Assembly: GCA_010093995.1 (NCBI GenBank)
Contig: ML992512.1
Coordinates: 985,424-1,005,423 of the forward strand
Length of the DNA: 20,000 bases
DNA from: Elsinoe ampelina
Taxonomy: Eukaryota
Direction: 5' to 3'
Shown one piece after another: positions 1 through 20,000 of the stretch. Within the stretch, counting starts at the first letter, position 1. Each line of letters begins with the position of its first letter. The notes beneath the pieces are model-generated. The model was not told the origin of the DNA, did not search any database, and worked only from the letters and a program-made list of their open reading frames with translations. The position numbers and the translations under genes were made by a program.

Positions 1-1145
1 TCGGAGGTCCCCTCATTGGTGGAGCTTTCGCCGCTGGCGACGGCAGCAACTGGCCTTGGATATTTTGGATCAATCTCCCTTTCATAGCAATCGGGGGCGG
101 CCTGATGATTGCCTTCTTGCAGCTCAACAACCTTCCTGGATCGCTGGCTGCCAAGCTTCGCCGGGTCGACTACATGGGCATGGTCCTTTTCATTGGCTCT
201 ACCACTGGGTTATTGATCCCTTTGACCTGGGGCGGTGTCATGTACTCGTGGTCGTCCTGGCGCACGCTGGTGCCTCTACTGGTATCTGCTGCTGGTCTGG
301 TAGCCTTTGTCGTGTGGGAGGAGCGTTTCGCGGTAGAGCCACTTATCCCCTTCCGTATCACCAAGAGCTGGACAGCCGCGGCCACCTATATCACTACCTT
401 CCTCCACGGTATGGTCCTCTGGTGTCTTCTCTACTACGGGCCCCTCTACTTTGAAGCAGTCAAGGGCTACAGTCCTCTCATCTCCGGTATTGCCCTCTTC
501 CCATCGACCTTCACTGTCGCCCCAGCAAGCGTAGTAGTCGGCATCCTTGTCACCAAGACTGGTAAATACCGATGGTCACTTTACATTGGCTGGACTCTCG
601 CCACGCTTGGCTTTGGCCTTCAGTACCTCATGACGCACACCATTCCTACTGTCGGATGGGTATTCTTCCTCATCATCACCGGCCTCGGCACGGGTCTGCT
701 CTTCCCCGGTCTCGCTTTCAGCGTTCAAGCAGGTGCCGCAGAGGAGGATGCTGCCTCGGCCGTCGCTCTCTTCACCTTCATGCGCACTTTCGGTCAAGCA
801 ATCGGTGTCGCGGTGGGTGGTGTCGTCTTCCAGAACGCCATCAGGAAGCAGATTGCTTCTCGACCTCTCATCGCCATGAACGCTGCGCAATGGGCGGCCG
901 ACTCCAGTGCGCTGGTGCAAACAATCCATGGCATGCCTGAGGGACAGATCAAGATGGATCTGATCGAGAGCTATGCCGATGCGCTCAAGGTGGTCTGGGC
1001 TGTCTGCTGCGGCTTTGCTGGTCTGGCTCTTCTGCTTACCTTCTTGATCAAGGAATTCAGCTTGGATCGCCAACTGGGAAGCAAGGAGCAATTTGTGGAT
1101 AGCAGGAGAACTAGCTCCGAGGAGGCTGGTGCTGAGAAGGCGTGA
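1..1145 (+). CDS. MFS drug:H+ antiporter (DHA2/14-TM type), 5'-partial
   Basis: The frame of ORF 105..1145 is open back to base 3 and reads GGPLIGGAF...WPWIFWINLP (DHA2 motif), then VDYMG, many hydrophobic helices, and the C-terminal R.FGQAIGVAVGGVVFQN. Stop TGA at 1143-1145. Confidence 0.93.
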   Translation, partial: GGPLIGGAFAAGDGSNWPWIFWINLPFIAIGGGLMIAFLQLNNLPGSLAAKLRRVDYMGMVLFIGSTTGLLIPLTWGGVMYSWSSWRTLVPLLVSAAGLVAFVVWEERFAVEPLIPFRITKSWTAAATYITTFLHGMVLWCLLYYGPLYFEAVKGYSPLISGIALFPSTFTVAPASVVVGILVTKTGKYRWSLYIGWTLATLGFGLQYLMTHTIPTVGWVFFLIITGLGTGLLFPGLAFSVQAGAAEEDAASAVALFTFMRTFGQAIGVAVGGVVFQNAIRKQIASRPLIAMNAAQWAADSSALVQTIHGMPEGQIKMDLIESYADALKVVWAVCCGFAGLALLLTFLIKEFSLDRQLGSKEQFVDSRRTSSEEAGAEKA

Positions 1146-1357
1146 GAGCAGGATGGGTGTCGAGAAGTCTGTATCATGATACTTTATGATAAACGAAAGA
1201 GCGTGGAGTTTGGCAATGTTTTCGATATAGACAAGGGTCAGGATGATAGATCATAATTAGACGAGTAGCTGTAATCTAATTCCACTTATTTCTAGAAAGA
1301 TCTTCATGTCCTCGTTCAACTGCAATAGTCGATTTGTGTTCACATTACTGGTCATGT

Positions 1358-2188
1358 CTACGTTACTATGAGTTCTGCGGAAGCGTCATCGACTAATTGC
1401 AGTCCGTGACCATGCTCGTTCATCACTCGAACGGCCTCCTGCGTTAGCTGGTAACTCCAGTAATAATTGGAGAAGTCGTTCGCGCTCTTGACGTGGGTCG
1501 AACTGGAATCGGGTGCCGCTGCTCGCGTGTTTCGCACGACTTGTGCTACCCTCTCCGACCTCAGCTCATTGAAGACCTGAAGTCGAGCATGCACCTCGTC
1601 AGACTTGGCACCTTTCAGGACAACTCGCAGTGCTTCGGCATCCTCCAGTGCTTGACATGCTCCCTGTCCTTGGTCTACAGTCTGTCAGTTCTCGTGATCG
1701 TTCGACGCTGATGACCACGCTCACGTGGTCCCATCGCATGACCTGCGTCACCGATGAGAGCAAAGTTGTCCTTCACCAGGGAGTCGAGTGGATCTCGATC
1801 CCTCAGCTGCCTGCCATCCGCCATTGCGAGAGCCTTGAGGACGCTTGGGTGGAAGTCCTTGAACGTCTCGAGAATCTCCTCGACTGAAGCTTTCTCATCC
1901 CACTGCATACGTCGTTCGCTACTATCTGGAAAGATACCGACAAAGTACCTTCTCAGCCTCGACGTAACGAGCTTTGTGCTTGTCAAAGCCAGCGCGAGCG
2001 AAGCTCGACCTGAGTAATCTACTGGCATTGACCGAGAACGTTACGGCAGCGCCGACTTTTTTGTGCACAGTAGATGCTCCAAGAACAACCACATCATGGT
2101 CCTCTCTGAGCAGCAATGCTGTAGCTATGCCTGCAATACCGGCACCGCACACGATCACTCTAAGTCGGGATGTGATAGCTTCTACCAT
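1358..2188 (-). pseudogene. FAD-dependent monooxygenase (salicylate hydroxylase-like), internally deleted
   Basis: The pieces 2188-1949 (VIVCGAGIAG Rossmann motif), 1902-1725 (LIGDAGHAMGP) and 1674-1358 (HQGQGACQALEDA) join through GT-AG gaps at 1948-1903 and 1724-1675 into only ~245 aa. The central part with the DG motif is absent, and the conserved acidic residue after beta-strand 2 is Gly (VVVLGAS). Confidence 0.8.
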
Positions 2189-2540
2189 GTTTGACAGCAG
2201 CCTAGCGAGAGGCCCTGGGGGAAGAAAAGAATCGCATGTTGCTGGACTATTGAAGTACCGCCCTGTCCGAACGTCGCAGGTAAGAGTGCGGGTAGACTGA
2301 CAGTTCACATCACATGAGTTGCGGAAGTCGTGCATCGGTTGTGCAAGTGTATACTTCTGGTTCTCGAAATGTTATCTGTCCCGTCACTGCGATGCAAATG
2401 ATTAAAATCTCCACTGTATTTTGCTCATCCCTCCGGCGCCAAAGCTGGTATCAAGTGAATGTCGTGGCCCATTTCCCGCGAGCAAAAATTAACGTCATCT
2501 CTGGCATGAAATTATTTACAATGGTCATAATCGTGCTAAT

Positions 2541-3822
2541 CTAGACATAGATGTAGCACAGAGGTCGTTTGGTCGTCGACATGACGTCTCCGATGGTGAC
2601 AGTCTTCGCGAGGACACCGAGATCGATCGCATCGGTCAAGGCCGTGTCGCGGCTGGGAGGACTGTTGAAGAGTGTGAGGGTTCCGGCAAGTGCTCTCTCA
2701 CGGGTAGCAAGGTCCTGATTCTGCCAGATCCACCAAAGGCGATCGATTTGACCATGATGGAGGAAGAAGTATGGGTCGCCAGGGGAGGCAAAGAGATCTC
2801 CCCCTGGATCGCCACCAACAAGGAAGTGACCAGCAGTATGCACACCGATAAATCCGTTGGGGAAGTCACCTTGCATGGTGTTCTGGAAGGACAAGATGTC
2901 CTGGTTGTTATTGATAAGAGTGGTCGAGTTTTGATCGTAGAGGTTCGAGGTCGAAGCCGCCGAGCTGATGTCACGGCGGATGCAGCGAGGATTGTATCCA
3001 AGTCCATCAGGAGACGGGTTGGCGGGAGCGTATGGAAGGACAGGCGAGAGAGGCCCAAGGTTGACCTGGTAGTCCTTGAACGGACCGGAGGTGATGCAGT
3101 CACCACCGTTTCCAGGTGGAAGAGTCAGGGGAGGCGTAGCTGCGGCAAAGATCACGGCAGGAGGGTGCTCACGGTAAGCACCATCGCCGCTCATTGAGGT
3201 GTCGGAGCCATCGAAGACTGGTGCTGCGCGAGGGTTGGACGCTAGCTTTCCCCAGTTGAGGTATGGTTGATATCCGGTGTAGCCGCACTCATTTCGCAAA
3301 GCTTGCTCGTAGGCCCATGTGAAATATCTGTGCCATGACAAGAAGTTTCCAGTGCCGTGGATGGACAAGGTCTGTTGAATGTGCTTCAACATGTTAGTCT
3401 TGATGATTTGGGATGAGATACTGAGGTCCACATACAATAGCGACAAAATCATCGTATCGGTTCTTCGCTCCTGGGGCGGCGGAACCGACTTGAGAAGGTT
3501 TCGATTGCAAACACTGGACAGCAGAGATGTAGGCCTTCTTCTCCTTTGCGCTAAGTGTGTTCCTACTGAGGTCAGTATCGTTCACGGAGGCATCATGAGT
3601 GAGGGCTTACCATTCTCTCCGCTGAGCGGCTGTGAGTATGTTGCATGTTCCTGGTGCTCCCGAGGTAAATTGAGAGACAGCAAGCTTGATCAGCCCCAAA
3701 GCTGCAAGCTTGTCTGTACCGGCGGTGCTGTCTGGTGTCCATGCTGGCGCAGGTGCACGCTTGACAGGGCCAGCACTAACGACCGTAGCCGCAGCAGCGG
3801 ACAGAAGCCAAAGAAGATGCAT
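2541..3822 (-). CDS. Secreted tyrosinase / catechol-oxidase-like di-copper protein (~393 aa)
   Basis: Exons 3822-3611, 3562-3436 and 3383-2541; intron donors GTAAGC and GTATGT with branch sites. Signal peptide, RREW, RYDDFV, CuA His residues (HIQQTLSIH...FLSWHR) and CuB (HTAGH...DPYFFLHHGQIDRLW). Confidence 0.93.
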
Positions 3823-5318
3823 AATGTAATGCCCACGTGGATGACTGCCTGAAAGAAGAGTCGAAGATCAGCGATTATCCACTACTGTGCAGTATACACG
3901 TGGTGCACGTTGGAGTAATGGGCTGCATGAAACCGTCATGGGAACCTGCATATATAGATACAAATAGAGGTCTCATTAGAGCCATTGGATAGCGCAATAT
4001 GATCAACGCGCAGTACCCACCGGAATCCTGACTATGCAGCCACAAGGGTGACAGAACATGTCTAGCTCACCTGTCATGCCAGGAAAACCAAGTGCCGAAC
4101 GAGTGGGAGGCGGCGCGGGCTTGCGGGAAATGTCCAGGCTCGTCCCGTTATGGAAAAAGACTTTTGGGGCCCTGCAATTTAAGTTGACCTACGCCCGGGA
4201 TTGCCCCACTGCGGCGTGGTGAAGATGCAGGGCAAGCCCCAGAGGGGGGGCTGACTTTCCAGAAGGCTTCTCTAGACCAAGTTGGGGCGAGACTGGATCT
4301 CCTTGACGACGAGTCGAAGGATTCATGCAGCTGACGGTGAGCAGCTTCGAAGAGATGTGCTTGAGACACCCAATTCCCGCAGCGTAACAGCTTGGATGAA
4401 ATGATAGTCTCAGACGACACAAGCGAGGCGTCCGGAAATGAAGCCTTTAGGGCTCGCTGGGCACCTGATCCACGATAAAGTGAAGATTGATCTCCCTGCC
4501 AATGACGATCAATGGAGCCACGTGCGAGGGCCTGAGAAACATCACGCCGCACGCGAGGTGCGACGACGGCATAGAATTGCCGTTGGTTTTTGCTTTTGTG
4601 TCGACCGCGATAGGGCACGGCCGGGAACCGGTCACAGGCAGCGTGGCTGTCCGTTGGAGAGAAAAAGAACAGACGCCCCCCTGCATGGACGAAGCTAAGT
4701 AGACGACACTATTGCCTTCTAGGCGGGATAGGAAACCGCACGGAAGTCATCGTATCCGAAGTCATGGCTCTCGCACGTAGTCCTGGAGAGGGAAGAGCTA
4801 CGCAGCTATTGGAACAAAAGACGAAGGAGGCAAAGACATAGAGGTTACCGTTGGGTGGCACTCTGTGCTGATCAGAGCCGAAACAGACGTTTGCGCTCTG
4901 GTGGCAGGATTCAAGCTCGGCGCCGCTGATATACCTGGTCCTTTCCATATCCTGGTGTACCCGTCATGCATATCCTCGGTTGTTTAGGCAGATTTGCAGA
5001 GGTCCTGAATATGGACAACGGCTGATCAGCATGTCGCGTTGGTGGACTCGCAATCGACTTGTGTGCCCTGGGTCGGTGAAGACTCCTCTGACAATCTCAG
5101 CATCCCTGCCGCCGGCAAGAGGGGGCCGTGTGATTTCTTCGGCTCGCATCAGGCACTAACTCGGACGGGATCGTGCAAGTGTGCATCCCATGGTGAGCTA
5201 TTGGAATGGTACGGGCTCTTCCTGTAACAGATGTGCAATTATACATGCATACACATAAAGATCCCTGATCGCCGGTCAAGATCTGTCCGCGCACCTTTGC
5301 TGCATCGTTGCGTACATC

Positions 5319-6705
5319 ATGCCGGCACTTTTGCTTGCTCGTGCAGGTGACCTGACACGGCGTGCCAATGTCAAGGGTTCTCCAGCATACCTCGCCGAAA
5401 ACAACGCGCCTGCTATCCTTACACTTGTTGGCGTCTTTGGAGGACTGTCTCTCGTGACGGTATGTCTTCGGATCTATGTCCGGCAATTCATGCTGGAAGG
5501 CGTGACTGCCGATGACATTGTTATGTTTGTCGCAATGGTCAGTCATTCATCCTGCATTCCATAGAATGCTTCTGACTCTATCAGCTCATGGGTATCGCCT
5601 TGTTCGGATGCTTCTGTGGTCAAGCCAATCATGGACTGGGTCGCCATGAAGAGTTCTTGACTTTGGACGATCAACAAGGCTTTCAGCGCATCCAGTTCTG
5701 GTCTTCCTTGCTGGTCACCTCAGCCATCACCTTGGTCAAGGTCTCGATATCGCTGCTTCTCATCAAGCTGGTGAACAATAAGCACCTTATCCGCTTCCTT
5801 TACGTCTTCATCGGTGAGTTCATGTTTGCGACACATGTAAGGTCTTGCGACTGACATTCAAGGTTTGATCTGCGCATACACGATCGCCTCCGATCTCACC
5901 ATCATCCTCGCCTGTCGACCAGTGGACGCCGCTTGGGACTTTTCGAAAATGCCGACTGCGAAATGCTTCTCGACCAAGACGTTCAGTGCTCTCGGCATTG
6001 CCAATTCGGTCGTCACTATCTTTACCGATGTCCTGCTTGCGCTCCTTCCGGTGCCCATCGTGTGGAAATTGCAGACCAACTTGCGAACAAAGGTCGCTCT
6101 GATTGGTGTGCTGGCCTTGGGTCTCGTCGCAGTAGCTGCCGGTGCTGTCAAGGTCAACGCTCAACTGACTTTCTTGTCTATCGCGGATCGTTTCTAGTAA
6201 GTCGTCCACTGTCCTATGGCCGCAACAGCCGTGCTGACAGTCACCCAGCAAGAACGAATTCCCAGTCTGGGCTGCGCTGGAGCTATACATTGCCATCATT
6301 GCGGCGACACTGCCGACACTGCGTCCTTTGATGGCCGCATTCTTCAATGGTGTACGAAGCACAATTGGTTCGTCGAGCGGACGTACGAAGAAGACAACGC
6401 AGCAAAATACAGGAGGTCGATCGAGACAGAGAGGATACCATTCTCGAGCAATGTCGACCACTTGCAGCCGCAACGAGATGGTCAGAGATGAGGCAGGTAG
6501 CCAGGAAGGGCTTGTACTCACTCCGGTGAGCGGGAAGCACACTCCTGCTCTCACAAGGTCGACAGGCACTGGTGAGATGGACGAGAAGAGCAAGGATAAC
6601 AACGTTATTGTTCGGACTACGCATATCCATACGACAAAAGGATCGAGCTCCGACAGCTCTCCTAATGCGTCGTCATTCGGGGAGTTTGAATTTCAGAAAA
6701 GATGA
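5319..6705 (+). CDS. PTH11-like (fungal rhodopsin-domain) integral membrane protein, no CFEM domain
   Basis: Exons 5319-5537, 5585-5813, 5863-6196 and 6249-6705 splice in frame. Motifs LRIYVR...ADD, GLGRH, KVSISLL, CRPVDAAWD, TDVLLALLP..IVWKLQ and W..LE....IAATLPTLRPL. Confidence 0.9.
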
Positions 6706-7283
6706 TTGTATCAACGACTGTATTATAGAGCGTCCCAGCCGCAATGACGGGTAGGCGACATTGTAATGATTACTTCTTTCCCACGATCGAGCCCTTCTCT
6801 GGCTGCACACCCAAGAACGCTTTCCCACGGCGAGCGGGGTACATTAGGCATGGCGCAATCGCTGGCGTGACCTCAGATCCCGTGAAAAACCGTCGTTGTT
6901 CTGGAAGGAAAGCTAATTATGAAGGAAAATTGATGAGAAAGAAGCTCGTTTTCAGCTGCGAGAGCGGCACCAAGACTTTGTTTAGGCTGCCTTGGGAAGG
7001 TGACAGGGTCCGGGATAGAGATCTACTGCTTGGCCTTTACCTTTGCTCCTCTCCGGACTTTCTCTTTGGATGGGACTATGCACAGTACCTTGACAAAATG
7101 CTTAGCATGCTTGGACCTTTCTATTTTGTCGTGTGCGTTCAGGGCGGACATGAACTAGGTCCATGGCCAAAGATAAGTGGCCGCTGCCAAAAAAGAGTGG
7201 CGAGCGGCAGAGGAATGCTATATTAATCAAGCAGCGCTGGTCGCTGATGTGTGGCTCATCACAGGTATCTCACCAAGGTCATC

Positions 7284-8816
7284 ATGAAGGTCAACTCATT
7301 CACTTCGGTCGCTGCATTGGCATCCACGGCGCAAGCCGTTTTGCCACCTCTTCGTTCAGAGTGGTTCCAGAATACCATCACCACGAATGGGTGAGTTGTC
7401 TCTAGCGGTCACTGATCCAACTTCTCACGCAATCGCAGTCTAATGGAGAATCTGGCCAACCTAGACCGGATTGCGACGGAGAATGGTGGCAATCGAGCCT
7501 TTGGACTACCCGGCTACGACGCATCTCGCGACTTTGTCTTCGACCGTGTGTCCAAGTCGAAGAGGTTCACAGCTTCGAAACAAGACTTCCCTGCTTTGTA
7601 CAACAATGTCGACTCGATCACATTTCGTGTAGCCAACACCAGCTACTATGTCTTCGGTCCGACGTACTCGCCATCAACTTCTCCAGAGGGACTGACCAGG
7701 CAGCTCGTCCTTGGGCCTTCTGGTGATGCAGGTTGCAGCGTAGAGGGCTACGCAAACATCGACGTCAAGGATAAAATGGTCTTGGTACAGAGAGGGACAT
7801 GCCCGACTGGAGGGACCATCGCCGGAAGGATCAGGCCTGCCGCTGCTGCCGGCGCTGCCATTGTTATCCTATACAACAATGTACCCACCAAGGTCACTGG
7901 AGGTACCCTTTCAGCACCGGACCCAAAAGCTTTTGTTCCCAGTGGCTTCATCAATCAAGATGACGGCGAGGCTCTGCGGACAAGATTACTTGCTGGCGAA
8001 GTCATCGAGCCGTACTTTCAACACACTCAGACAGTCGAGACCAAGATCACTCAGAACGTCTTTGCTGAATCCAACGGCGGTGACCCCAACAATGTCATCA
8101 TGCTTGGTGCCCATCTCGACAGTGTGAAGGCTGGTGCTGGTATCAACGATGATGGATCTGGGAGCTCTCTCCTGCTGGAACTCTTTGACGGTCTTCAGCG
8201 TTTCAATTTCCGTAATAAGATCAGGCTTGCATGGTGGGGAGCTGAAGAAAATGGTCTAGTCGGTTCCCGATACTACACAACGCAGATCAACAACACAGCA
8301 GATGCCGACAACCTTCTTCTCTACCTGAACTTTGACATGGTCAGCAGAGGCTACTTTGGAGTGTTTGACGGAGATGGAAATACCCACGGCTTGGCTGGTG
8401 CTCCCGGCTCGGATGTTATCGAGAAGCTGTTCGTCGATCACTTGACAAGCAAGGGTATCAATGTCACCGCCGCCATCTTCACCGGTGGTAGCGATTATGC
8501 CTCATTCATGTCGACCCTTAACAAGCCTGTCGGCGGTCTACACACCGGCACTGGCGTTGCCCAGGACGACTGCTATCACCAACAATGTGATGTTTATGGC
8601 AATGCAAACCCCAATACACTCACCATCAACGCCAAAGCTGCGGCCCATGTTCTGTCCGTACTGGCCCAGCGAGGTCAAGACATCATCCCTAAGAAGACCG
8701 GCAATTTGACCATGACGGTGGGCAAGCGATCAGTGGAAAGCTTGGATCTCGACGACTTCCCATGGACTGTGCTTGACAGCGAACGCCATCTCGGCACTTG
8801 CGGCCACGATGTTTAG
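7284..8816 (+). CDS. Secreted M28 aminopeptidase with PA domain (aminopeptidase Y / LAP2-like, ~494 aa)
   Basis: Exon 1 7284-7390 (signal peptide MKVNSFTSVAALASTAQA), intron 7391-7438, exon 2 7439-8816. Zn-ligand motifs GAHLDSV, GINDDGSG, WGAEENGLVGS, LNFDM and CYH; PA insert LVQRGTC. Confidence 0.93.
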
Positions 8817-9279
8817 GTGGGCATGTTAGGCATATATGGGTTTCTGTAGAGTAGTAGAGGGGTGTAGAGGCTGTAGCACGTAGTGGACGAAGTGACGAAG
8901 TGAACGATGATAGCACTGCCAGCATAGGCGAATCAAGGCACTCATGATATGTGTGAGGTCGATCTCCGTGTCAGTCTTGTCGTCGAGTGAAAATACTGAG
9001 GACAACACGGAGACACCTCCCCGCCCTTGGCACACCGAACCGAGTTTCTCCACGACCTGAAACCCACCTGTTCTCCTTCGTCCTTCACAGCACCAACCAC
9101 AAACATTTTCGTCTGTCATGGTCTCTCAAATGATACTCCGAGTGGCGCAAGGGATGCTGGTCGTTGCTACCAGCACGTCTGACCATCTTGGCAGGGCGGA
9201 GTACCAGCGCTGGCAGGTATAAGTAATATCTGCTGCTGTACCATCAGTAAGATGTTCATCTTCCGCAGATCCTCTCACC

Positions 9280-10274
9280 ATGATCTTCTCCCGGCTGACC
9301 ACACTGACCACTCTTGTGGCCTGCTTCGCTGCGGTCACCCAGGCATCACCTGTTTCGTCTCTCGAGAGACGCGCCGACACATCCTGCACAGCTGCTGCCG
9401 ATGGCTTTGCTTCACTGAATGGAGGCACCACTGGAGGAGCGGGTGGAATTGTAGTCATTGTCACCACCCAAGCAGATCTCGTCAAGTTCGCCAAGGCATC
9501 TGGCAAGCATGTCATCAAGGTCAAGGGCAGGATCAGCATCACTCCAAAGGGTACCGAGGTCGAAGTGACCAACGACAAGACCATCATCGGCATCGGTGCC
9601 TCAGGAGAGATCTATCAAGGCGGTTTCAAGCTCAATGGTGCCGAGAACGTCATCTTCCGCAACCTCAAGATTGGGAACACGTATGTTGAAGGGGACGAGG
9701 AGGGCAAGACTCAGGACTGGGACGGCATTCAGATGGACACCGCGAGCAATGTCTGGATTGATCACGTCTTGTTCGAGAAGGGCGGCGATGGGCTGATCGA
9801 TAGTCGGAAGGACACAAACTTCTTGACCGTTTCCAATTCTGTTCTGCAAAACCACAACAAGGCCTTTGGTATTGGCTGGACCGAGAATGTGATTGCCCAG
9901 ATCACCATCCATCACAACTATTTTTTGAACACCAATCAGCGTAATCCTTCGCGGACAATGTCAAGTACGCTCACCTCTATAACAACTATGTCGTCGGCGC
10001 AAAGTCGTATGGTCATTATGCTCGCGGCAAGACTGATATGCGTATGGAGAACGTCTATTTTGAAAATTCCAAGAACCCCATCACCGCCGACTCCACGGCG
10101 AAGCTGGCGATATCTGGCAATGTCTACAAGAGCACCACCGGGACTACCGCGAAAGACCAGGGCACCGTCTTCAACGCTTCTAGTTTCTACAAGTACACTT
10201 TGACTCCGAGCAACAATGTCCCGAGCGTTGTCAAGGCAGAGTCTGGACCCAAGGCAAGCATTTGCACTTCATAA
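9280..10274 (+). pseudogene. PL1 pectate lyase with a 1-nt frameshift (pseudogene or sequence error)
   Basis: Signal peptide, GFASLNGGTTGG, KTIIG, NVIFRNL and VWIDH. After QRNP the sequence CCT TC GCG GAC (9946-9956) lacks one base, and the lyase continues in another frame (ADNVKYAHLYNNY...ENVYF) to the stop at 10274. Confidence 0.85.
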
Positions 10275-10833
10275 GTGGTCTCCATTTTGGAACTTGTCTT
10301 GAGCGGATGCTTGCTCGAATAAATCATACTTTCATGTACATAGTTTCTCGGCAAATGTCAGTTCCTGACACTTGGGCCCTCTGCCAAACATCCATGTGCG
10401 GACTACGTAGCACTGTCATTGAGCGCCATTGGGCACGTGTAGCCACAGGACCCTTGCTTGCGGAACAGCACGATCTTGCTGTCATACTCCAGGAAGCAGA
10501 ATTTCGTTGATGGCGAGTCGTACCATCTTGCTCGGATTGGGCGCTCTGTCAAGGACAATGTCGGATGTTTGAGATCAGACTGGAAGAAGACACTTGCTCT
10601 CATTGCACACACACCTACCCAAAGGGATTCGACGTGCAGGCGGAACCGAAACCTCAATGCCAGCCGGTGGCTTGATAGAAGCCTGAAGGATGTTTGGTAG
10701 ACGACATCCAAACAGTTTGCAAGAGAAATCAATCGGCACAAAGGTATTGAAATGACTTTCTGGCTGGATATTCAAGGCACTGGCGGGCCCATGACTTCTA
10801 ACATTCAAGTGCTCAATAATAGTCAATTCTACA

Positions 10834-12329
10834 CTACTCCTCCATTGGGGAATCTCCTCGTCCTATCCAGGTGTTCTCGTTCAGCAAGCCAGCCAGACCG
10901 GCCTGGTCGCCATGATCAAGGTACCCACATATGCGACCCTCGGGATCTCTCTTACGGCGCAGCTCCATCAGACGGCGCGCTTTCTCGTCCGTCCAGTATC
11001 TTGTCTGTCGGATCTGAAAGTCGGAATCTCCAAGGTATGCGCCATCGCATTTTGGTGCAATCCTTTTCATGACACTTTCCGTCCAGGTTTGACACCGATC
11101 GTCGTCCTTTTCATGCTCCCAGATGGTATAGATGGCGAAGTAGTGGTCCGACTGCATGCTCAGTGCCATATCGGGCATGTCACGACGGCTACACGGGGCC
11201 ATGCCGTACCACAGTGCGAATGCCTTGTCTGTGGGCAATGTTGTGAAGGCAGGCTCGAGGACATCTACCGGATCTTCGTCATTGGCGACATATCCATTGT
11301 CGGCACAGTACCGATGACCTTGTGGGTTGGCGCCAGCTTGGTCTCGATATTCTTTGGCGAGGCTGGTCTCTTGATCGACTGCCTCAACGAGAGGATCTGC
11401 TGGTCTCGAGCTGTTGGCTGGTGTAAGAGCCGCGAGACACTCTTCCTCAGAGTTCTTGAACGTTACGAAGAGCGCCACAATACACTTCTGGTCAATACCA
11501 GGCGGCGTATTGCCCACTGCTACAATCTCCGTGTCTGGATCAAAGTCGGGCGTAATGTCGACTACCCACCGCATGACCTCTCGGTATCTGGAAATGGGGT
11601 ATACAAAAGCAGAAGATCTCATGGCTGGCACCTTTGGTCGGACCTCGAGGTGGTAGCGGACGACTATGGCTGGGAAACCTATCCACGTTAGAGACACTTC
11701 CACAAGGATATGTTTGAGGATATTACCAGGTCCAGCGCCTTTTGCTGCCCAAAGCAAATCGCTGTTGTTCTCGGCATCGACTCGTGTCAATTCACCGTCG
11801 GCATTGACAACATCGAGCGCTCGGATCTTCTCGCAAGCCCATCCCCAATTCTAAGCCATGTCAGGATCTAATCAACGTTGGCTAGCGACGAACGTACTCT
11901 GCAATTCCAGCCCATGCCTCCTTGCAGGAGGAATCCTCCAAGCCCAACATCTGGACAGTGACCGCCAGCAAACATCAATCCTCGTTGCGACAGGTAGTCG
12001 TTCAACATACTGCCAGTCGTGCTGGGCGAGACTGTAGCAATACCCTTTTCGGAATCTAGTGATATGTGTTTCATGTTGCCGAGATCGATGAGGACTGCAT
12101 TATCCCTTACACTCCATGCAGCCCACGAATGGCCTCCGGAGCGTACAGAGACTCTGTGTCCTTTGGACTTGGCCAGTCGTACTGCTTCGACGACATGATC
12201 AGGTGTTTCCGCTTTGACCACAGCCACGGGATAACGTTTGGGACGTCGGTGATTGAACACTCTCCCTACCCTGGCTTCTTCGTAGACTGCCTCCTCGACT
12301 TCTGATCTCCAAATGATAGGTAAAGACAT
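10834..12329 (-). CDS. FAD-linked oxidase (FAD_binding_4; 6-hydroxy-D-nicotine oxidase/BBE-like, ~466 aa)
   Basis: Exons 12329-11898, 11850-11727 and 11678-10834. Motifs VRSGGHSW (covalent-FAD His), GGHCPDVGLGGFLLQGGMG, DLLWAAKGAGPGF, and the C-terminal R.KRDP. Confidence 0.92.
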
Positions 12330-12699
12330 TTCGTCGACTGTCTGCCTGGACGACCATCACACTCGTCTGATCTGCTTTTCATATCGTCTTGGAAAAAGGC
12401 TCTCTCGATTGTCAGATCTCCTCCACCCCGGGACTGACTCGCAAGCTCAACGGTTCGTGGGGTCCCCGCAGATCTCCTCCACTTTGTCTAACTTTCCTGT
12501 GAGACATCGGTTAGCATCAGCCACAGGCGATTGTCGCGTGACTGAGAAGGCTCGATGTTTGGAGAGCACTCCACATGGCTCTTTCTATATGACCATGCCG
12601 CACGCCCTTTGATCGACCAACATCGAGTCATCCCATTCCACATATCTTCTATCATCTCTAGTCTTCATTGATCAAGATCTTTTTCCTCTCTGCGTCGCC
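12330..12699. promoter_or_regulatory. Bidirectional promoter with an exact 14-bp direct repeat and CreA-consensus sites
   Basis: CAGATCTCCTCCAC occurs at 12413-12426 and 12469-12482. SYGGRG matches lie on the minus strand at 12421, 12464, 12477 and 12569. Confidence 0.5.
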
Positions 12700-14424
12700 A
12701 TGACTGGTGTTACCAAACAGAGAGCCTCAGAAGAGGTGACCCAAGTCAACACGCTTGGTCACCTACGCCTTCGCCATGAGCTTACCAATGAGATCATCCT
12801 CATTCCTACACCATCCAATGATCCCAATGATCCTCTCAACTGGTAAACAAGCTCTTGTCGATAGTGAAGTCAGCTTACTCTAGCAGGTCGAAGCGGCACC
12901 GCGTTTACATTGCGTTACTGGTCTCTCTGGCAATGTTTTTCTGCAACTTTCTTGCCGCCGGACCGTCTGTTGCCATCGTCAACATTGTTATCGATTACTT
13001 CGGCACGCCGCCAATGACCCCCGGGTTTCCGGCCGCTATCGCAAAGACCGCGTACCTCTTCACTACTACTGCACTGCTGCAAGGCATGGGGAATCTCATC
13101 TGGATGCCATTCATCATCAAATATGGCCGTCGACCCATGTATATCATATCATTCACCGGTTACGCCGTGTGTGCCCTTTGGTCTGGATTGTCCAAGAGTT
13201 ACGAGAGCGAGCTGGCGTCTAGGATCATTTTGGGATTCTTTGCAGGATCAGCTGAATGCATTGCACCTCTCACCATCTCCGACATCTTTTTCTTACATGA
13301 GCGTGGATTCTACATGGGGTAAGTCTTTACGGTATTACACAACATGCACGGGTGCTTTCATGCAGAGAATGTACAAATCGCTAACACCGAAAAGGATGTA
13401 CACAGTGGCACTTTCACTTGGCGTCTCTGGAGGTGTTATCATCTCTGGTTTGATCACAATCAATCTGAGCTGGCGGTACATCTATTACGTGGCCGCGGCT
13501 CTCATTGGTGCTTTGACCATTCTTGTCTTTTTCACCCTTCCAGAGACGGACTTCAAACGCGATCCGACCACGAGGACTATCCGTAACATCGAGTCAAAGG
13601 AGGTCGAAATAACAGAGCATGTAGAGGGACTGCCTGATACCAACCCCAGGCAATCTTTTGTGCAGCGTCTGCGCGTATTCCATGGACCCTTCACCAATGA
13701 GTCACTTTGGCGCATCTTCTACCGACCTATCGTCTTACTGGCGCTCCCACCTGTCCTGTGGGCAACCCTGATTATGTCTGTCACAATTGGATTTTTGGTC
13801 GCTATCTCGTCCAATTTTGCGTCCGCTTTCGCGCAAGTGTATGGGTTTAAGCCGTATCAATCCGGTCTCTGCTTCATCTCAGGATTCATCGGCACTCTGT
13901 TCGGTATCTTCGGCGGTGGTCAAGTCTCGGACTGGGTGGCCGATTACTTTACTCGCCGCAACGGAGGGATTCGCGAGCCGGAAATGCGTCTGCCAGCCAT
14001 GACACTGGGCTTGATCTGCACCCCTGTAGGTCTGGTGCTGTACGGTGTGGGCATTGAGAAACAGCTTCACTGGATTGTCGCAACCCTCGGTCTTGGGTTT
14101 CTCAGCTTTGCTATTGCGCAAACAACGAACGTCTCCCTGGTCTACATTATCGACTCGTACAGACCGATCGCTGGTGAAACTGTCGTTACTCAATTGGCTT
14201 TCAAGTCTGCATTCGGATTCCTTCTTTCCTTCTACACGAACCCCTGGATCGAAAAGGCTGGGTATGCCAATGCCTTTGGTGCCATGGCCGGAATTGCAGG
14301 GGGGGTGATCTTGCTTTGGGTACCCTTCTATATCTGGGGAAGGCAAATCCGTGTGGCAACACTCAAATGGAGGGTCATGACAAACCTGGCAGGATGGGAT
14401 GAGGATAGAGAGGTCGGCGAGTAG
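12700..14424 (+). CDS. MFS transporter (DHA1/HOL1-like, ~534 aa)
   Basis: Exons 12700-12842, 12887-13318 and 13395-14424. Motifs LIPTPSNDPNDPLNW, KYGRRP, ISDIFFLHERG, LPET and GIREPEMRL. Confidence 0.92.
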
Positions 14425-15078
14425 GGGAGGCTTGCGGGCCCTTGATATATCATCTAGCCAACGCGACGAACAGGGATACACGGAGTTCAATGGACCAACA
14501 GCCCAGTACTTGCTACAGATATTGGATTCAGCGCTTTACTTGCTCGTGAAAACCTCTTTCATGTAGATCGTTGGTGATGTATGATAAAGCAAGCAGCCGG
14601 ACGCTCTCATCACACCTGAACGAGGGGATCGCGTGAGCGCATGCTCGACGAGGCTTAACGTGAGAGGACCATTGTAACCCTGGGGTGTCGCACGCATCTG
14701 CACGAAATGTGGTCCCGGTCAATGCCACGCGGTTCTCATGGGAGGCGTTTTTAGACTTCTGCATGCCTTGCGAGCGTTTGTTGAACCATGTTTTGACATC
14801 GGGCCCACATGTTCACCCCGCGTCCCAAACAATCAATTTCCATCTCCCTCTTCCTCTCCAACGACCACGACTTCGGATTGCATACTCTGTGGGCACCAAC
14901 AATCCGCTCTCCACCCACAAGCACACTTCTTGACCTCATCTTCGCGATTCTTGGGGGACCACATGCCCGGGCGGGCTCTCCACCTGTGGAGGTAAGATGG
15001 GATTGAACATCCGGGTCCGCGAGCAAGGAGAAGAGCAGGAAGAACAAGGACAACTGAGATTGTAGCAAGCTGGAAATC

Positions 15079-15900
15079 ATGGAAGCATTGGATAACGCCG
15101 TCGCCATCAACAGTCGGGACACCGATCTTCAGGCCGTCAACTTGCAGTCGTTGACAGGCAAAATCGCAGTCATCAGCGGGTCAAGCTCTGGCATTGGCAA
15201 AGCGATTGCCATCGAACTTGCCAGTCGCGGCGCGTCTACAGTCATCAACTATCCGTTCGAAACCCTCAAGGATGAAGCGGCGGCGGTATTACCTCGTCTA
15301 GCGGTCCCTGGGATAGCTGTCTGCGCCGACATATCAACCATTGACGGTCCAAGAATCCTGATCGAGGCGGCCGTGAAAGCGTTTGGGAAAGTCGACATTA
15401 TCGTCAACAACGCAGCGATTGCTGTCAACAAACCTTTCGAAGAACAAACCCTTGCCGACTGGGATCTACTTGTCAACCTCAATGGGCGGGGGACATTCCT
15501 GCTCACCCAACACGCACTTCCTCATATGCCTCGCCCCGGTGGTCGAATAGTCAACATATGCAGCGCTTCGTCTCGTGGGCCGCCGCCATGGCAGACTATC
15601 TACGCCGGGACAAAGGGTATGGTCGACAGCTTCACCAAAGTGTGGGCCAAAGAGCTTGCGGAGAAGTACGGCTGCACAGTCAACAGTGTGAGTCCGGGAC
15701 CGACCAGGACAGAGGGGTTTGCAAATGCGGGCGAAGAGGTCATGAAGTTTCTACAACCCACCATTGACGCCACACCGGCAGCGAGACGGATGGGGGAAAC
15801 TACGGAAATAGCGTATGCGGTGGCTATGCTGTGCGAGGAGCGAGCGAGGTGGCTCAATGGACTGCATCTGCATGCTAATGGAGGTCTTCTCATTGATTGA
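15079..15900 (+). CDS. Classical short-chain dehydrogenase/reductase
   Basis: Intronless 273 aa ORF with SGSSSGIG, VNNAA, catalytic YAGTK, VNSVSPGPT and a C-terminal NGG. Confidence 0.93.
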   Translation: MEALDNAVAINSRDTDLQAVNLQSLTGKIAVISGSSSGIGKAIAIELASRGASTVINYPFETLKDEAAAVLPRLAVPGIAVCADISTIDGPRILIEAAVKAFGKVDIIVNNAAIAVNKPFEEQTLADWDLLVNLNGRGTFLLTQHALPHMPRPGGRIVNICSASSRGPPPWQTIYAGTKGMVDSFTKVWAKELAEKYGCTVNSVSPGPTRTEGFANAGEEVMKFLQPTIDATPAARRMGETTEIAYAVAMLCEERARWLNGLHLHANGGLLID

Positions 15901-16251
15901 TAGACAAAATAAAGAATCGTATGCCTTGCATCTTGTGTCTTATCGTCACGCTGATGCTGTAGGGAATGTTACCTGAACTGCTGAGGTGGGCCGCGGAGGA
16001 CCACTAAGGGCCAGCTGGGCCGATCATACTGTACTGCTGCATTGCTACCAAGATATGTCATTTGCCGGATATGAATGTTCGTGTATCGTCCGATCCACTG
16101 TGCCCAACAACCCCGACACTCCCACTCGGCTCTGACCCTCTTCCTGTTCCATCTCCACATACTTAGCGACCAGGGCTTGCCACAGATATCGACCGGGTCC
16201 CTAACCACAACCCAATCTCACCATCGCTCGCGCTTGTTCTTGAGCTTTACC

Positions 16252-16549
16252 ATGTTGCATCTCGTGCTTCTCTCTCTGGCCGTGCTGGCCTTCGCTCTTG
16301 CGGTCAGTTGCATGATGAGCAGAGCAAGTCTTGACTGACCATTCGTAGTATGTGTACCGTATCCTGGCGTCACCACTCCGACGACTGCCCGGCCCCTGGT
16401 ACTCTCACTTCACCCATCTCTGGCTGAAGTGCCATGTCGTCAAAGGCAGACGCCTTCACTATATCCGCGGTCTACACAAGCACTACGGGCCGATTGTCCG
16501 TGTCTCGCCTACCGGGATCGATGTGTCCTCAGGGTTAGGGTTAGGGTGA
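16252..16549 (+). pseudogene. Cytochrome P450, N-terminal fragment only
   Basis: Exon 1 16252-16302 (membrane anchor), intron 16303-16348, then exon 2 with SPLRRLPGP...LHKHYGPIVRVSP. After ~77 codons the frame runs into telomeric repeats (SGLGLG*). No I-helix, EXXR or heme-Cys region is present in the window. Confidence 0.88.
16529..16546 (+). repeat. Interstitial telomeric tract TCAGGG(TTAGGG)2
   Basis: Read directly from the sequence. It coincides with the P450 breakpoint and with a compositional boundary. Confidence 0.8.
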
Positions 16550-16582
16550 AAAGTACATTCAGTGTGTAGCTACCCTGACATA

Positions 16583-17659
16583 CATGTCCAAATCGGTGGC
16601 AAACAGCAATCACGCAACGAAAACAAATCCTATCTAAACCAAATTTTTACTATATTAAATGTACCTCTTTTCTTATAGAACGTAGCAAAAATTATCTAAA
16701 TCTAATATTAATTGACTAAGATATTAGCGTTTCTAGTTAATACTATATCCTACCTAATTCTATACTCTTATATAAACTAGGTTCGTAGATAAGTAGCCTA
16801 TAAGCTAGTTCTACGTATAGTAAGATAAGGAATATTAAATTTCCTTAAACGCCGCTACTAATTTATACTTTAATAGTCTCTCTTAGCTAAGAATAAAAAG
16901 GTAAAAGCTATACTTTAAAAGGATATATTTATACTATTTCTTAGTCTCTACTATAGTAAGAGTTAAGTCCGGTGTAGCTCTAGTCTTTTCCCTTACTAGG
17001 GAGACTACTATAATATTATAGAAAGTTATTCCTATTAGTATATTAACTTTAATATCTATCTAGTAGTTAGAATCTTCTTCTCTTTTTAGTTTAAGTATAG
17101 TAGTTATTTAGGCAACGAAATTTATTACTTTAGCTAGTACTCTATAGATAAGATTATACTTAACTCTTATCTATTAAGAATAAGTACTATAGATATCTTT
17201 ATAGCTAAAAGTATATATTTTACTATAGTACTAGTAAAGCTCTTACTAGCGCTCTACTAGTAAGAGAAGTTAAATCGAGAGTGCTAACGTAATATTCTAA
17301 TTAGTAAGGAGTAGGTCTTAGCTTATTCGAAGTATAGAGAGCTAATAGAAGTCTAAATAGATACTATTTTTTTATTTTATAGTCTCTTACTCTTTTAATA
17401 GGTTTTAATATATCTTTATTAATCTTATGTTATATATAGCTTAGATCTAGGTCTAGTAGTGTTATTTAGCCTATTTAGCGTCTAATAGATCTATCGAGAG
17501 GTCTATAAAGAGGAGAAAGAAGATTCTAAAGGTTAAGATATTCTCTAGTATACCTATATAAATATAAAAGGTTTAAATTGCTTACGGCGCGCTATTAGTC
17601 GTTTCGACCTTATTCTAGGCTAGAATAGGGCCTACTCTAGCTATAGTATCTGGACACTA
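16583..17659. mobile_element. RIP-degraded repeat, probably a TA-targeting DNA transposon remnant
   Basis: Very AT-rich (sampled 60-mers 18-33% GC) and TpA-saturated. CpA/TpG are nearly absent internally while CpG survives, and there are no ORFs. Imperfect inverted ends CA-TGTCCAAAT ... ATCTGGACACTA are each flanked by TA. No transposase could be read. Confidence 0.65.
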
Positions 17660-18856
17660 TATGTCTTAGGAGGAAGGGTACATTCCAATGGTTTTACTAG
17701 AGCAGGGTTAGGGTATTTTCCTAGATTCTAATGGGATTCCTAACCTCCATTCTTTAGGACTTCCTAAGATTTTTTCCCTCTGAATTTTTCAGAGATTACT
17801 TATATCACCTAGGTCCTCCATGATACTCAGTATCATCTAGAATCATCGAGTATTACTCCCAGAATCTGGGTCATGGTATGCTGGGACTGTCCTGAAAATC
17901 TTTTGAAGTTCCTGAGAAAATATGGGGTAGGGGTCTTGGCAGCTTTGCTCCTGACAGTCAGGAACTCCAGAACATCCCCACAAATTCAGAGAGGCCCAGG
18001 CAGACCAGTAGACAGATATAGAATACATATTGAAGCAGAATGAATTTCCTAGCAAACAGGAGGTCCAAGAATCATAGATGACTCCATGGTACTCAGATTG
18101 TATGTATGGATATCGCTCCTAGAGTTATCAGGGAAATCCTAGAGCCTATGATCCTCGATTGAATAATAGACAACCAGGATCTTCAGTAGAAATACCTACC
18201 TCCCCTCCTGTCTTTGTCTTTTCTAACTACCTCTCAGCATTCCCCCATCATTTTCCGGGGTCCAGGGTTCTCAGGACAGCCAGATTGATATTCAATAGCT
18301 TTTCATGATACCAGATTCAGATCTGGTAAGTAGATCATATCGGCAGGAGTCAGAATGGAATTCTTGAGGGCTCATGGTTCCGCTGGAGTACAGAGCCATA
18401 ATCATGAGTCCATCCACCCAAAGGTTTGGGCTATTGTTCCTATTGTATTACCTATTGTTATATTGCTCCAGGCAACAATAAACTTTCATAAGGAATTGTC
18501 AGCAAGCATTCCTGGTTTGGCCCCTGGCAGCCAGGCGTTGGTTAGTACATCCTGAGTCTCCAGGGATTGTGACCTGGGCCTTTCACATGCTATATTCACA
18601 TGCTCCTTTGTTATTATATCACCCTTTGTTTCATATGCCCAGCCACCTAGCATGACTCACAGATCTCATATATCTCTTTCATTCCCTCCAGCTTTCTTCC
18701 TTCCTCTTCTCATCACCTTCATCACAGTAAGTTTGCCCCATCACAGCCAGATCCTCATCCAGTCCCTTCAAGAGAGTCAAAGCAGCCAGAGATGCCACCA
18801 CAGAGATCAAACAGCTTCCAATCAGCTCCAGAAAGAACCAGCTTTACAGCTCACCT

Positions 18857-18895
18857 ACAGCCTTCACAGCCTTCATAGCTTTCACAGAGCTTTTC
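18857..18895 (+). repeat. Degenerate 9-bp tandem repeat (ACAGCCTTC)
   Basis: ACAGCCTTC ACAGCCTTC ATAGCTTTC ACAGAGCTTTTC, with further CAGCY copies scattered over about 18780-18980. Confidence 0.65.
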
Positions 18896-19163
18896 ACTAG
18901 CAAGAGATGGATATACCTGGCAGCCCTTTACACCAACAAGCCCAGCAGCCTTCACAGCAATACATACAGCTCCATTCAGCCTATAGATCTTATCTCTGCT
19001 GCTTTGACTCTACTGAGAGGCCTTGAATGAGGACCTTTGGTGAATGTGAGCCTTCCTGAGAACCCTGACTGACCATGACTTCCAGTTCTGACCTCCTGGC
19101 CCTCCTGCAATTTTGCCTTCCTTCCTGAACAACTTCCTGAGCCCAGCGCTCCCAGCAACCATC

Positions 19164-20000
19164 ATGGCTCCCAGGGCCTCGCATACTAGGACTCCTGTGA
19201 CCTTCCTGGCTACCACTAGAGACAGGGTTGCCAACCTGAATACCCTGAGTAAGCCCTGAGCCCCTGATACACATCCTGATTTCACTGACACTTCCAGGCT
19301 ATGCCCAGGTTCCTATGACCCTTCCCTTTGCCCAGCAGGTCCAGGCCAACCTCCAGGGACTCAATGTGGCCCAGCGCAATTCCCTGGACGCCCAGGTCAA
19401 ACCCCTGGTCAACGCTGATCTCCAGGTCTTCGCCAGGACCGGTCCTGAGTTCCAGCTCAACCAGCCCATCAACCTGAGGACTCCTGGAACGACCATGAAC
19501 CTTTCTGGATCCAACACCAACTACCTGGTTTCTCTGCTCGTCCATGGCGCTTCTGGGCATACTGTCCACCCAGCTGGTCAGGAGTGCACTTCCTGTGCTC
19601 AGGGGAACGGCAAATACAACTCCTGTGTCACCATGACCACTCCTGACGGCACTGTGCTCCTGAGGGGCTCCTGTACCAACTGTGGCTTCCAGAACAATCA
19701 CCATGGCTGCAGCTTGTCCAGTACGTGTTCCTGAGTTTCCTGATCGATCCTGACTGACATGAGTCCCAGACTACCAGAGAGCTTCCAGACGCCCCTCTAC
19801 TGACCCCACCCCTGTGCGTCCTAGGGCTTCTGGACCCATGAGACGCCTCAGAGGTCTCCTGACCGACGATGAGGCTACCAGGGGCTTCCTGATTGAGCTT
19901 CCTGACGACTCTGACCCTTCTGAGAACCAGCGCGCCCTGGACAATTTCCTGGCTCTCCTGGACGATATCAAGGCTCAGGTGACCACCCTGAGGGACAGGG
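19164..20000 (+). CDS. Three-exon gene for a six-cysteine putative zinc-binding protein (DUF3716-like), 3'-partial
   Basis: ATG at 19164 in a good context (ACCATCATGG). Exons 19164-19248, 19298-19720 and 19770->20000; two 49-nt introns (donors GTAAGC and GTACGT, CTGAC branch, CCAG acceptor) keep one open frame. Motif C-x2-C-x9-C-x15-C-x2-C-x8-C at 19585-19710. The DUF3716 label is from memory of the motif, not from a search. Confidence 0.8.

Follow-up and report, generated by a model that had tools for sequence, protein, structure and literature searches.

A transcribed, CpG-poor repeat family adjoins a repeat with CpA-type RIP at a probably rebuilt chromosome end of Elsinoe ampelina

Introduction

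We analysed a window of 20,000 nucleotides from Elsinoe ampelina (GenBank assembly GCA_010093995.1, contig ML992512.1, positions 985,424 to 1,005,423 of the forward strand; positions below are those of the window). Its last 2.35 kb form a CpG-depleted block that carries a gene for a DUF3716 protein and abuts a segment marked by repeat-induced point mutation (RIP). The closest described system is Styx/ZtREP9 (REP9) of Zymoseptoria, an IS3EU-type class II transposon of 7.9 kb with 43-bp terminal inverted repeats (TIRs), a 6-bp target site duplication (TSD) and a gene for an RVE integrase; the transposon begins with two genes for DUF3716 proteins, which have no known function (PMC8232023, PMC10853768). 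In the available text of these reports the element is multicopy and transcribed, mostly escapes RIP, carries C>T and G>A changes in its older copies, is linked to chromosomal rearrangement and is reported from Zymoseptoria only (PMC8232023, PMC10853768). The E. ampelina block is likewise a multicopy, transcribed element of a Dothideomycete with a DUF3716 gene and with both near-identical and RIP-type copies. Its gene starts near one end of the multicopy unit, ~1.5 kb from the edge at 17650, as in Styx. In contrast to the full length, TIRs, TSD and integrase described for Styx, the block is known from the 2.35 kb that lie in the window. The main text of PMC10853768 makes no mention of 'CpG'.

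Further likenesses come from other fungi. In Tuber melanosporum, copies of transposable elements (TEs) show transition signatures of two kinds, at CpA and at CpG (Amselem et al. 2015, PMC4352252), and CpG signatures in basidiomycetes go with Masc2-like Dnmt1 genes, an enzyme class distinct from RID, in the available text of that study (PMC4352252). In Tuber as in Elsinoe, the repeats of a single genome carry two C>T signatures, each tied to its own dinucleotide. As described, however, the CpG signature of Tuber was read among copies, whereas in Elsinoe all copies share the CpG loss and the differences between them are of the CpA type alone. Strong CpG-specific depletion confined to repeats also has a parallel in the Pezizomycotina: Sharpton et al. 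reportedly described CpG-depleted repeats in Coccidioides and Uncinocarpus (Onygenales) in 2009 and read them as the product of a CpG-biased RIP-like process. There, repeats in general are affected, whereas the neighbour repeat in Elsinoe shows pure CpA RIP with CpG at expectation. Finally, the Y' elements of yeast and the MoTeR arrays of Magnaporthe are subtelomeric repeats parted by short internal telomere tracts. The E. ampelina locus resembles them in its end-ward TTAGGG tracts between a truncated unique gene and the repeats, in an assembly that breaks inside a repeat, and in repeat units common to several loci. It differs in that no helicase or reverse-transcriptase gene was seen in the window and that the second telomere-like tract spans just 9 bases and is set 56 bases into the repeat.

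A literature search on RIP with CpG depletion led to work on basidiomycetes only, and one on DNMT5 and CpG in Dothideomycetes returned nothing. RIP-escaping repeats bearing DUF3716 and CpG-depleted fungal repeats are both known kinds; the family described here, transcribed, currently unRIPped and almost free of CpG in a fungus whose RIP is purely CpA-directed, is a variant of these.

Results

Two signatures adjoin near position 17650

The segment 16630-17650 is textbook CpA-type RIP. Its GC content is 27.8%; CpA has an observed/expected ratio (o/e) of 0.06 (3 sites) and TpG of 0.13, and the ratios of TpA and CpT are 1.55 and 1.9. The RIP indices are 1.81 for TpA/ApT and 0.11 for (CpA+TpG)/(ApC+GpT), where RIP is recognised by values well above 0.89 and well below 1.03, respectively. 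CpG stands at expectation (o/e 0.96, 19 sites), a ratio that refers to the surviving C and G; the absolute density is 1.86 CpG per 100 bp against 6.07 in the host DNA to the left, or about one third. RIP in this genome is CpA-specific: C is deaminated only before A, and CpG is left at expectation. The second index rises from 0.09 at 17500-17649 to 0.64, 1.22 and 1.54 in the next three 100-bp steps, and the RIP indices thus relax across the first 100-200 bases of the block.

The block itself has lost CpG. Only 30 CpG remain in 17662-20000 (o/e 0.21). Exactly 8 of them fall in the 1.5 kb before the gene (17662-19163, o/e 0.11), where 2000 mononucleotide shuffles gave a mean of 75.0 (standard deviation 6.6, minimum 55). 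The 600 bases of 18541-19140 contain none, with ~30 expected from base composition; 18541-19163 has 202 C and 98 G. In the coding part (19164-20000) the ratio is 0.33 (22 CpG). The host DNA at 1-16629 has a CpG o/e of 0.87 and a GC content of 52.7%, and none of its windows falls below 0.75 when 1500 bp wide or below 0.53 when 300 bp wide. The symmetrised dinucleotide signature of the block lies 0.175 from that of the host; host windows of 2.3 kb reach at most 0.069.

These counts bear out every number in a preliminary description of the locus, which had been made from the letters alone. It had reported a segment at 16630-17650 stripped of CpA and TpG with CpG kept, a slight RIP-like tail into the left edge of the block, about 8 CpG in 17662-19163 and zero in 18541-19140, CpG-rich host genes at the left and a partial return of CpG in the coding part. 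Its view that the RIPped segment is nested has to be given up: the segment sits between the telomere tract at 16532-16547 and the block edge near 17650, not inside the block. We also considered the segment as a RIPped copy of the block and rejected this, the longest matches in a purine/pyrimidine alphabet (20-21) being shorter than those in shuffled controls (up to 26).

The block belongs to a multicopy family on which RIP has acted

Copies of the block were sought among Logan contigs of X1, a run in which 97% of the words sampled from the block are present and that is by our guess DNA, possibly the assembly's own sample. At an identity of at least 80%, 220 contig pieces aligned to 16300-20000: 29 at 99% or more, 39 at 95-99%, 99 at 90-95% and 53 below 90%. 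Multicopy status requires no assumption on depth, because diverged pieces are listed directly, such as those with 39 other letters in 240, 23 in 128 or 25 in 141. Furthermore, the exact-match contigs of the block had depths of 651.5, 678.8, 710.5 and 552.8, which is 2.4-3.1 times the 230.5 of the contig that holds host genes and the RIPped segment (16300-17679), bearing in mind that Logan contig depth is not a clean copy number.

The other copies differed from the window at 90 places, with C>T at 46, G>A at 27, T>C at 3, A>G at 3 and transversions at 11. Sequence context was read from the 40 of 148 differing places that were listed. Among the 39 listed transitions (16300-20000), 18 of 24 C>T changes had A as the next base and 12 of 15 G>A changes had T just before them; within the block, 8 of 9 C>T changes were at CpA and all 9 G>A changes at TpG. 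RIP has therefore acted on sibling copies of the block family. The window copy shows almost no RIP beyond ~17850 and is a young or unRIPped member of the family.

The preliminary description had favoured a single-copy foreign origin for a block that was probably not yet duplicated when its neighbour was RIPped. This is contradicted by the sibling pieces, by the depth of the exact contigs and by changes among siblings that, within the block, are nearly all at CpA or TpG among those listed; a multicopy block with standard RIP alleles is the very outcome that the description had named as refuting it.

The left edge of the repeat lies at ~17650, since contigs diverge from the window before 17649-17653; two of those departing are in X1 and have AT-rich flanks, and one is in X3 and has a GC-rich flank. 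Separately, the summed depth in the bin 17664-17787 was 11,653, against 230 for the host, and this terminal piece is far more abundant than the rest of the block.

The DUF3716 gene is intact, spliced and transcribed

The block carries an intact, spliced and transcribed DUF3716 gene in three exons (Table 1), which when joined translate exactly to the database gene model P0001. Splicing is shown by GT..AG joints present in contigs of X3, X4 and X6, which we guess to be RNA runs. These runs leave parts of the block uncovered, and no conclusion is drawn from such gaps. The domain match (PF12511) has an E-value of 2e-12 and 47.2 bits against a cutoff of 22, over residues 87-134 of the open reading frame (ORF) from 19315. 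In 39 sequences C168 and C187 were invariant, and C155, C158, C184 and C196 were at least 90% conserved.

A paralogue, P0002, is annotated on another contig (~2 Mb). It scores 45.1 bits against PF12511 and continues 22 residues beyond P0001. The two proteins differ at 30 residues, 29 of which fall in the first 114 and one in the remaining 132, a mosaic that suggests a recent exchange of the 3' half between repeat copies. Many of the 29 differences need two base changes. The P0002 model starts 30 residues further upstream; in the window copy this upstream extension (19068-19166) is interrupted by a frame shift and a TGA, so that the gene would start at the internal ATG at 19164.

Relatives beyond this pair are distant. 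With E <= 0.001 as the threshold, an exhaustive HMMER search returned 39 proteins, of which all but P0001 are remote and share no more than 43% identity across the domain. The look-alike clusters come from ascomycetes, and Neophaeotheca triangularis is the source of one relative. A word-based search of 5.8 billion protein clusters found only the two copies and nothing else above ~40% identity. Among metagenome contigs, 171 stretches matched a pattern derived from P0002 and none encoded a relative; an exact pattern of 42 bases taken from the gene matched nothing. The AlphaFold2 model of the protein has a mean predicted local distance difference test score (pLDDT) of 78.1, with residues 51-200 mostly above 90. 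Foldseek found nothing in the PDB at E <= 0.001 (best 1.4), and VIA-align against 48,161 chains gave no Z of 5 or more (best 3.6, mostly on the C-terminal helix), which neither proves nor disproves a new fold.

CpG is also scarce in the coding sequence (CDS), which has 20, against 50.3 +/- 5.3 (minimum 33, 2000 trials) when the same protein is written in host codon usage. It is avoided in all three codon contexts: NCG codons number 2 of 77, Arg is written as AGR in 15 of 20 cases against 34 of 99 in host genes, and the base before a codon is C in 13 of 70 cases where that codon starts with G and in 94 of 175 where it does not. A-ending codons are also rare (12 of 245 third positions). The CpG level of the CDS fits an old balance, in which CpG is lost fast or selected against and codon or protein constraint opposes the loss.

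The CpG loss probably predates the present copies

If ~100 CpGs had been lost after the copies split, C or G would remain in siblings at many TpG or CpA sites of the window copy. T>C or A>G was found at 6 places at most among the X1 copies. The only such place listed, 18017, is not a CpG; it reads TpA in the window and CpA in most copies, and is a RIP-type change in the window copy. The loss thus appears older than the copies. Also, a P0002-type transcript, represented in X3 by two loose ends of 30 bases that match the P0002 protein, has no CpG and contains the word CCTGA seen in the block (below). CpG poverty would then be a family trait that predates the present copies. The idea put forward earlier, of an old CpG loss alongside purifying selection on an intact gene, agrees with a gene that is spliced, transcribed and identical in translation to the database model.

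A probable old CpG loss beside a RIPped repeat

On balance, we lean towards an old, family-wide loss of CpG in a multicopy repeat that lies beside a RIPped repeat at a rebuilt chromosome end. The window would be the end of a Dothideomycete chromosome arm where a P450 gene was broken and capped with TTAGGG, with repeats beyond the cap. The first repeat (16548-17649) would have been struck by the CpA-only RIP of the host. The second (17650 to the end) would be the inner part of a multicopy family with an intron-containing, transcribed DUF3716 gene. Its near-absence of CpG would predate the copies and, within the gene, would reflect a balance of CpG loss against codon and protein constraint. Sibling copies in the same genome would carry ordinary CpA-to-TpA RIP, and the window copy would be young or unRIPped. 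The two signatures would adjoin because two repeats of different histories abut, one marked by RIP that spares CpG and the other by an earlier loss of CpG. The most likely cause of that loss is long-term CpG-specific hypermutability, through deamination of methylated CpG, in the lineage of the element, whether in the present host or in an ascomycete that it inhabited before. The example of Styx/REP9 suggests that the block may be that end of a DNA transposon which bears the first gene; a subtelomeric repeat of the yeast Y' kind would fit it equally well.

Several observations weigh against this reading. Decay of the vertebrate, methylation-driven type should leave TpG/CpA and NCA in excess along with the CpG deficit, and only the deficit was found. 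There is no compensating excess, since symmetrised CA/TG reaches 1.27 in the block and 1.22 in the host, and NCA codons, the synonymous product of NCG decay, make up 1 of 77 in the CDS. The excess sits instead in CC/GG (1.19 against 0.90 in the host) and AG/CT (1.35 against 1.03); among trinucleotides CTG and CAG alone are raised, and GTG and TTG are lowered. The missing TpG/CpA excess, the rise of CTG and CAG only and the rare NCA fit selection or a foreign composition as well as they fit decay. One copy cannot separate old methylation decay from selection against CpG or from imported composition, and no close relative was found outside P0001 and P0002 in the collections searched, hence no outgroup DNA. 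General CpG decay on the repeats of this genome is not evident, because the RIPped neighbour keeps CpG at expectation, unless that neighbour is young. Within the 2.35 kb of the element in the window we saw no transposase, TIR pair or TSD, the element running off the window. The limits given above on contig depth and on the listed share of differing places count on the same side. An old equilibrium, with other forces at work, could mask an excess of TpG/CpA.

Alternative explanations of the CpG deficit

Selection rather than mutation may have excluded CpG, for example if it allowed a transcribed element to escape CpG-directed methylation or silencing; we regard this as rather unlikely. The codon data speak for it: CpG is avoided in all contexts, Arg is shifted to AGR and, because A-ending codons are avoided along with CpG, the synonymous sites of the gene appear to be under effective selection. 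The absence of a TpG/CpA excess, the transcription of the element and the unRIPped state of the window copy point the same way. The depletion is deepest in non-coding DNA, however, and selection would need to act on every site there; with one copy, it is also indistinguishable from old decay. We know of no CpG-reading defence in Pezizomycotina, and literature searches on related terms yielded no such system.

Horizontal arrival of an already CpG-poor mobile element from a CpG-methylating ascomycete, followed by amplification and CpA RIP, is unlikely in our view. It would account for a CpG-poor family trait that predates the copies, for a dinucleotide signature unlike that of the host, for a RIPped neighbour without CpG-specific decay, and for gene relatives that are all remote with look-alike clusters in ascomycetes. 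Horizontal transfer of DDD/E transposons is described as widespread, which we count in its favour (PMC10853768). Against it, neither a donor nor a close foreign relative was found among protein clusters, metagenome contigs or HMMER matches, and the coexistence of two deeply diverged 5' halves, that of P0001 and that of P0002, suggests that the element has been resident for long or came in more than once.

A burst of CpG-directed RIP on the block, in a former host or through a second pathway here, we hold to be improbable. CpG-directed RIP is reported from some Eurotiales. The near-complete loss of non-coding CpG would suit a burst, as would the precedent of two signatures in Tuber TE copies (PMC4352252). 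A burst wrecks genes through nonsense and missense changes, whereas the DUF3716 gene is unbroken, equals P0001 and has its introns spliced in three runs; with the by-products of decay also missing, NCA codons being 1 of 77 and TpG/CpA showing no excess over the host, a recent burst is unlikely. Furthermore, all RIP alleles seen here, among the differing places listed, are CpA-type, and the RIPped neighbour is at CpG expectation.

Single-copy foreign DNA, whose CpG decayed by methylation and which escaped RIP since it was never duplicated, is very improbable and, if the X1 pieces belong to the same genome, refuted: the nearly unRIPped window copy, the deviating dinucleotide signature and the lack of close relatives in the protein clusters favour it, but the block is multicopy with standard RIP alleles in its siblings and has a second annotated gene copy on another contig.

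As it stands, the main yield is thus a correction, to two repeats at a rebuilt chromosome end rather than a single-copy foreign insert. If the purge of CpG was lineage-long in an active repeat, the family would offer a handle on a second, CpG-specific process, of mutation or of selection, in a plant-pathogen group where CpA-type RIP alone has been recognised so far. Under the same condition, the block would stand for a kind of repeat that remains expressed and free of mutation beside RIPped DNA; families of this kind, Styx of Zymoseptoria being one, drive chromosome rearrangement. That a RIP-escaping, transcribed family whose neighbours show CpA-type RIP alone was purged of CpG inside and outside its gene, either by a CpG-specific cytosine methylation or silencing system of this fungal lineage that targets this one family or by adaptive avoidance of CpG for the sake of expression, is a doubtful proposition for now.

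The chromosome-end setting and further features

Table 1. Positions of the features in the window
Feature	Position	Strand	Remarks
Cytochrome P450 N-terminal exon fragment	16349..16531	+	Cut off by telomere repeat
Interstitial telomere repeat, 2.8 units of TTAGGG	16532..16547	+	Tandem Repeats Finder (TRF) period 6, 100% match; right-hand-end orientation
AT-rich repeat with CpA-type RIP	16548..17649	.	First ~80 bases little mutated in window copy
CpG-depleted, CTG/CAG-rich block, inner part of multicopy repeat family	17650..20000	+	Runs off window
Telomere-like GGGTTAGGG, 9 bases	17705..17713	+	56 bases inside left edge of block; one X1 contig departs exactly after 17705
Spliced transcript piece	18070..18377	+	GT..AG intron 18186-18237; upstream non-coding exon or separate non-coding RNA
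DUF3716 gene exon 1	19164..19248	+	Start codon of database gene model; joint 19248>19298 GT..AG in X3 and X6
DUF3716 gene exon 2	19298..19720	+	Domain ~19573-19716; joint 19720>19770 GT..AG in X3, X4 and X6
DUF3716 gene exon 3	19770..20000	+	Frame open to base 20000

To the left of the repeats, the first 16.5 kb hold genes for major facilitator superfamily (MFS) transporters, a tyrosinase, an M28 peptidase, a pectate lyase and a short-chain dehydrogenase. They end in a P450 fragment of 61 amino acids that is 75% identical over 100% of its length to the 'Cytochrome P450-like protein 92' of Elsinoe fawcettii (723 amino acids) and 57% identical to an Aspergillus P450 of 489 amino acids. The E. 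fawcettii protein has PF00067 and short-chain dehydrogenase/reductase (SDR) domains, and its gene model also spans the neighbouring dehydrogenase; Pfam alone gave no match on the 61-residue fragment. The gene is cut after roughly its first 85 residues. GGGTTAGGGTTAGGGT at 16532 abuts the P450 frame, which leads directly into GGGTTAGGG... and there meets a stop. The window has three copies of GGGTTAGGG, at 16532, 16538 and 17705, always on the + strand; 0.10 occurrences are expected, and 0 of 200 shuffles reached three.

Since the P450 frame is cut by TTAGGG, the chromosome arm was broken in the P450 gene and capped, and repeat DNA now lies beyond the cap; the junction bears the mark of a chromosome break healed by telomere addition, with the repeat DNA added later. 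Telomere repeats pointing towards the end thus adjoin the repeats, as expected of subtelomeric repeats. On a contig of 1,005,423 bases, the gene model P0001 stops precisely where the window does, and the assembly therefore seems to break off inside the block, probably at a contig end. Contig record 7 of X1 extends 359 bases past the window end. Contigs of X3, X4 and X6 cover 16335-16499, so that either the P450 stump or an intact allele of other strains is transcribed.

The RIPped repeat is itself multicopy in its left ~250 bases (16548-16795), where summed X1 depth is ~3 times that of the host; at 16566-16753 other X1 copies bear additional C>T and G>A changes. The remainder (16796-17539) is at single depth in X1, where RIPped copies possibly fall below 80% identity. 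Other copies of 16548-16795 begin directly behind telomere-repeat letters and have undergone heavier RIP than the one in the window, and this piece may be a telomere-associated element.

Upstream of the gene, the spliced transcript piece rests on one X3 contig, in which the joint 18185>18238 has 116 letters on its shorter side. Every frame of the joined region is interrupted by stops, and none offers a long ORF with support. The ORFs at 18652-18900 (+) and 18990-19274 (-) had no Pfam match.

The X1 contig that leaves the window after 17705 continues for 24 further letters, the last 13 of which we take to resemble one loxP arm. If so, engineered construct or vector DNA in the sequenced strain or sample would lie beside a copy.

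The block is also rich in one word. TCCTGA occurs in 17650-20000 17 times on the forward and 3 times on the reverse strand, against 5.0 expected from a second-order Markov model. A tandem-repeat origin of the CCTGA-rich composition was rejected, as TRF shows short arrays only (a 9-mer in 3.4 copies at 18857 and a 21-mer in 2 copies at 19936). The C-rich, CpG-free composition may account for the strand-biased word, which could also be a functional site of the element. It is found, also as TTCCTGA, in the exons, both introns and the upstream DNA, and 9 CCTGA cluster in 19055-19275; in the RIP-affected left ~200 bases of the block it appears as TTCCTAA or TTCCTAG.

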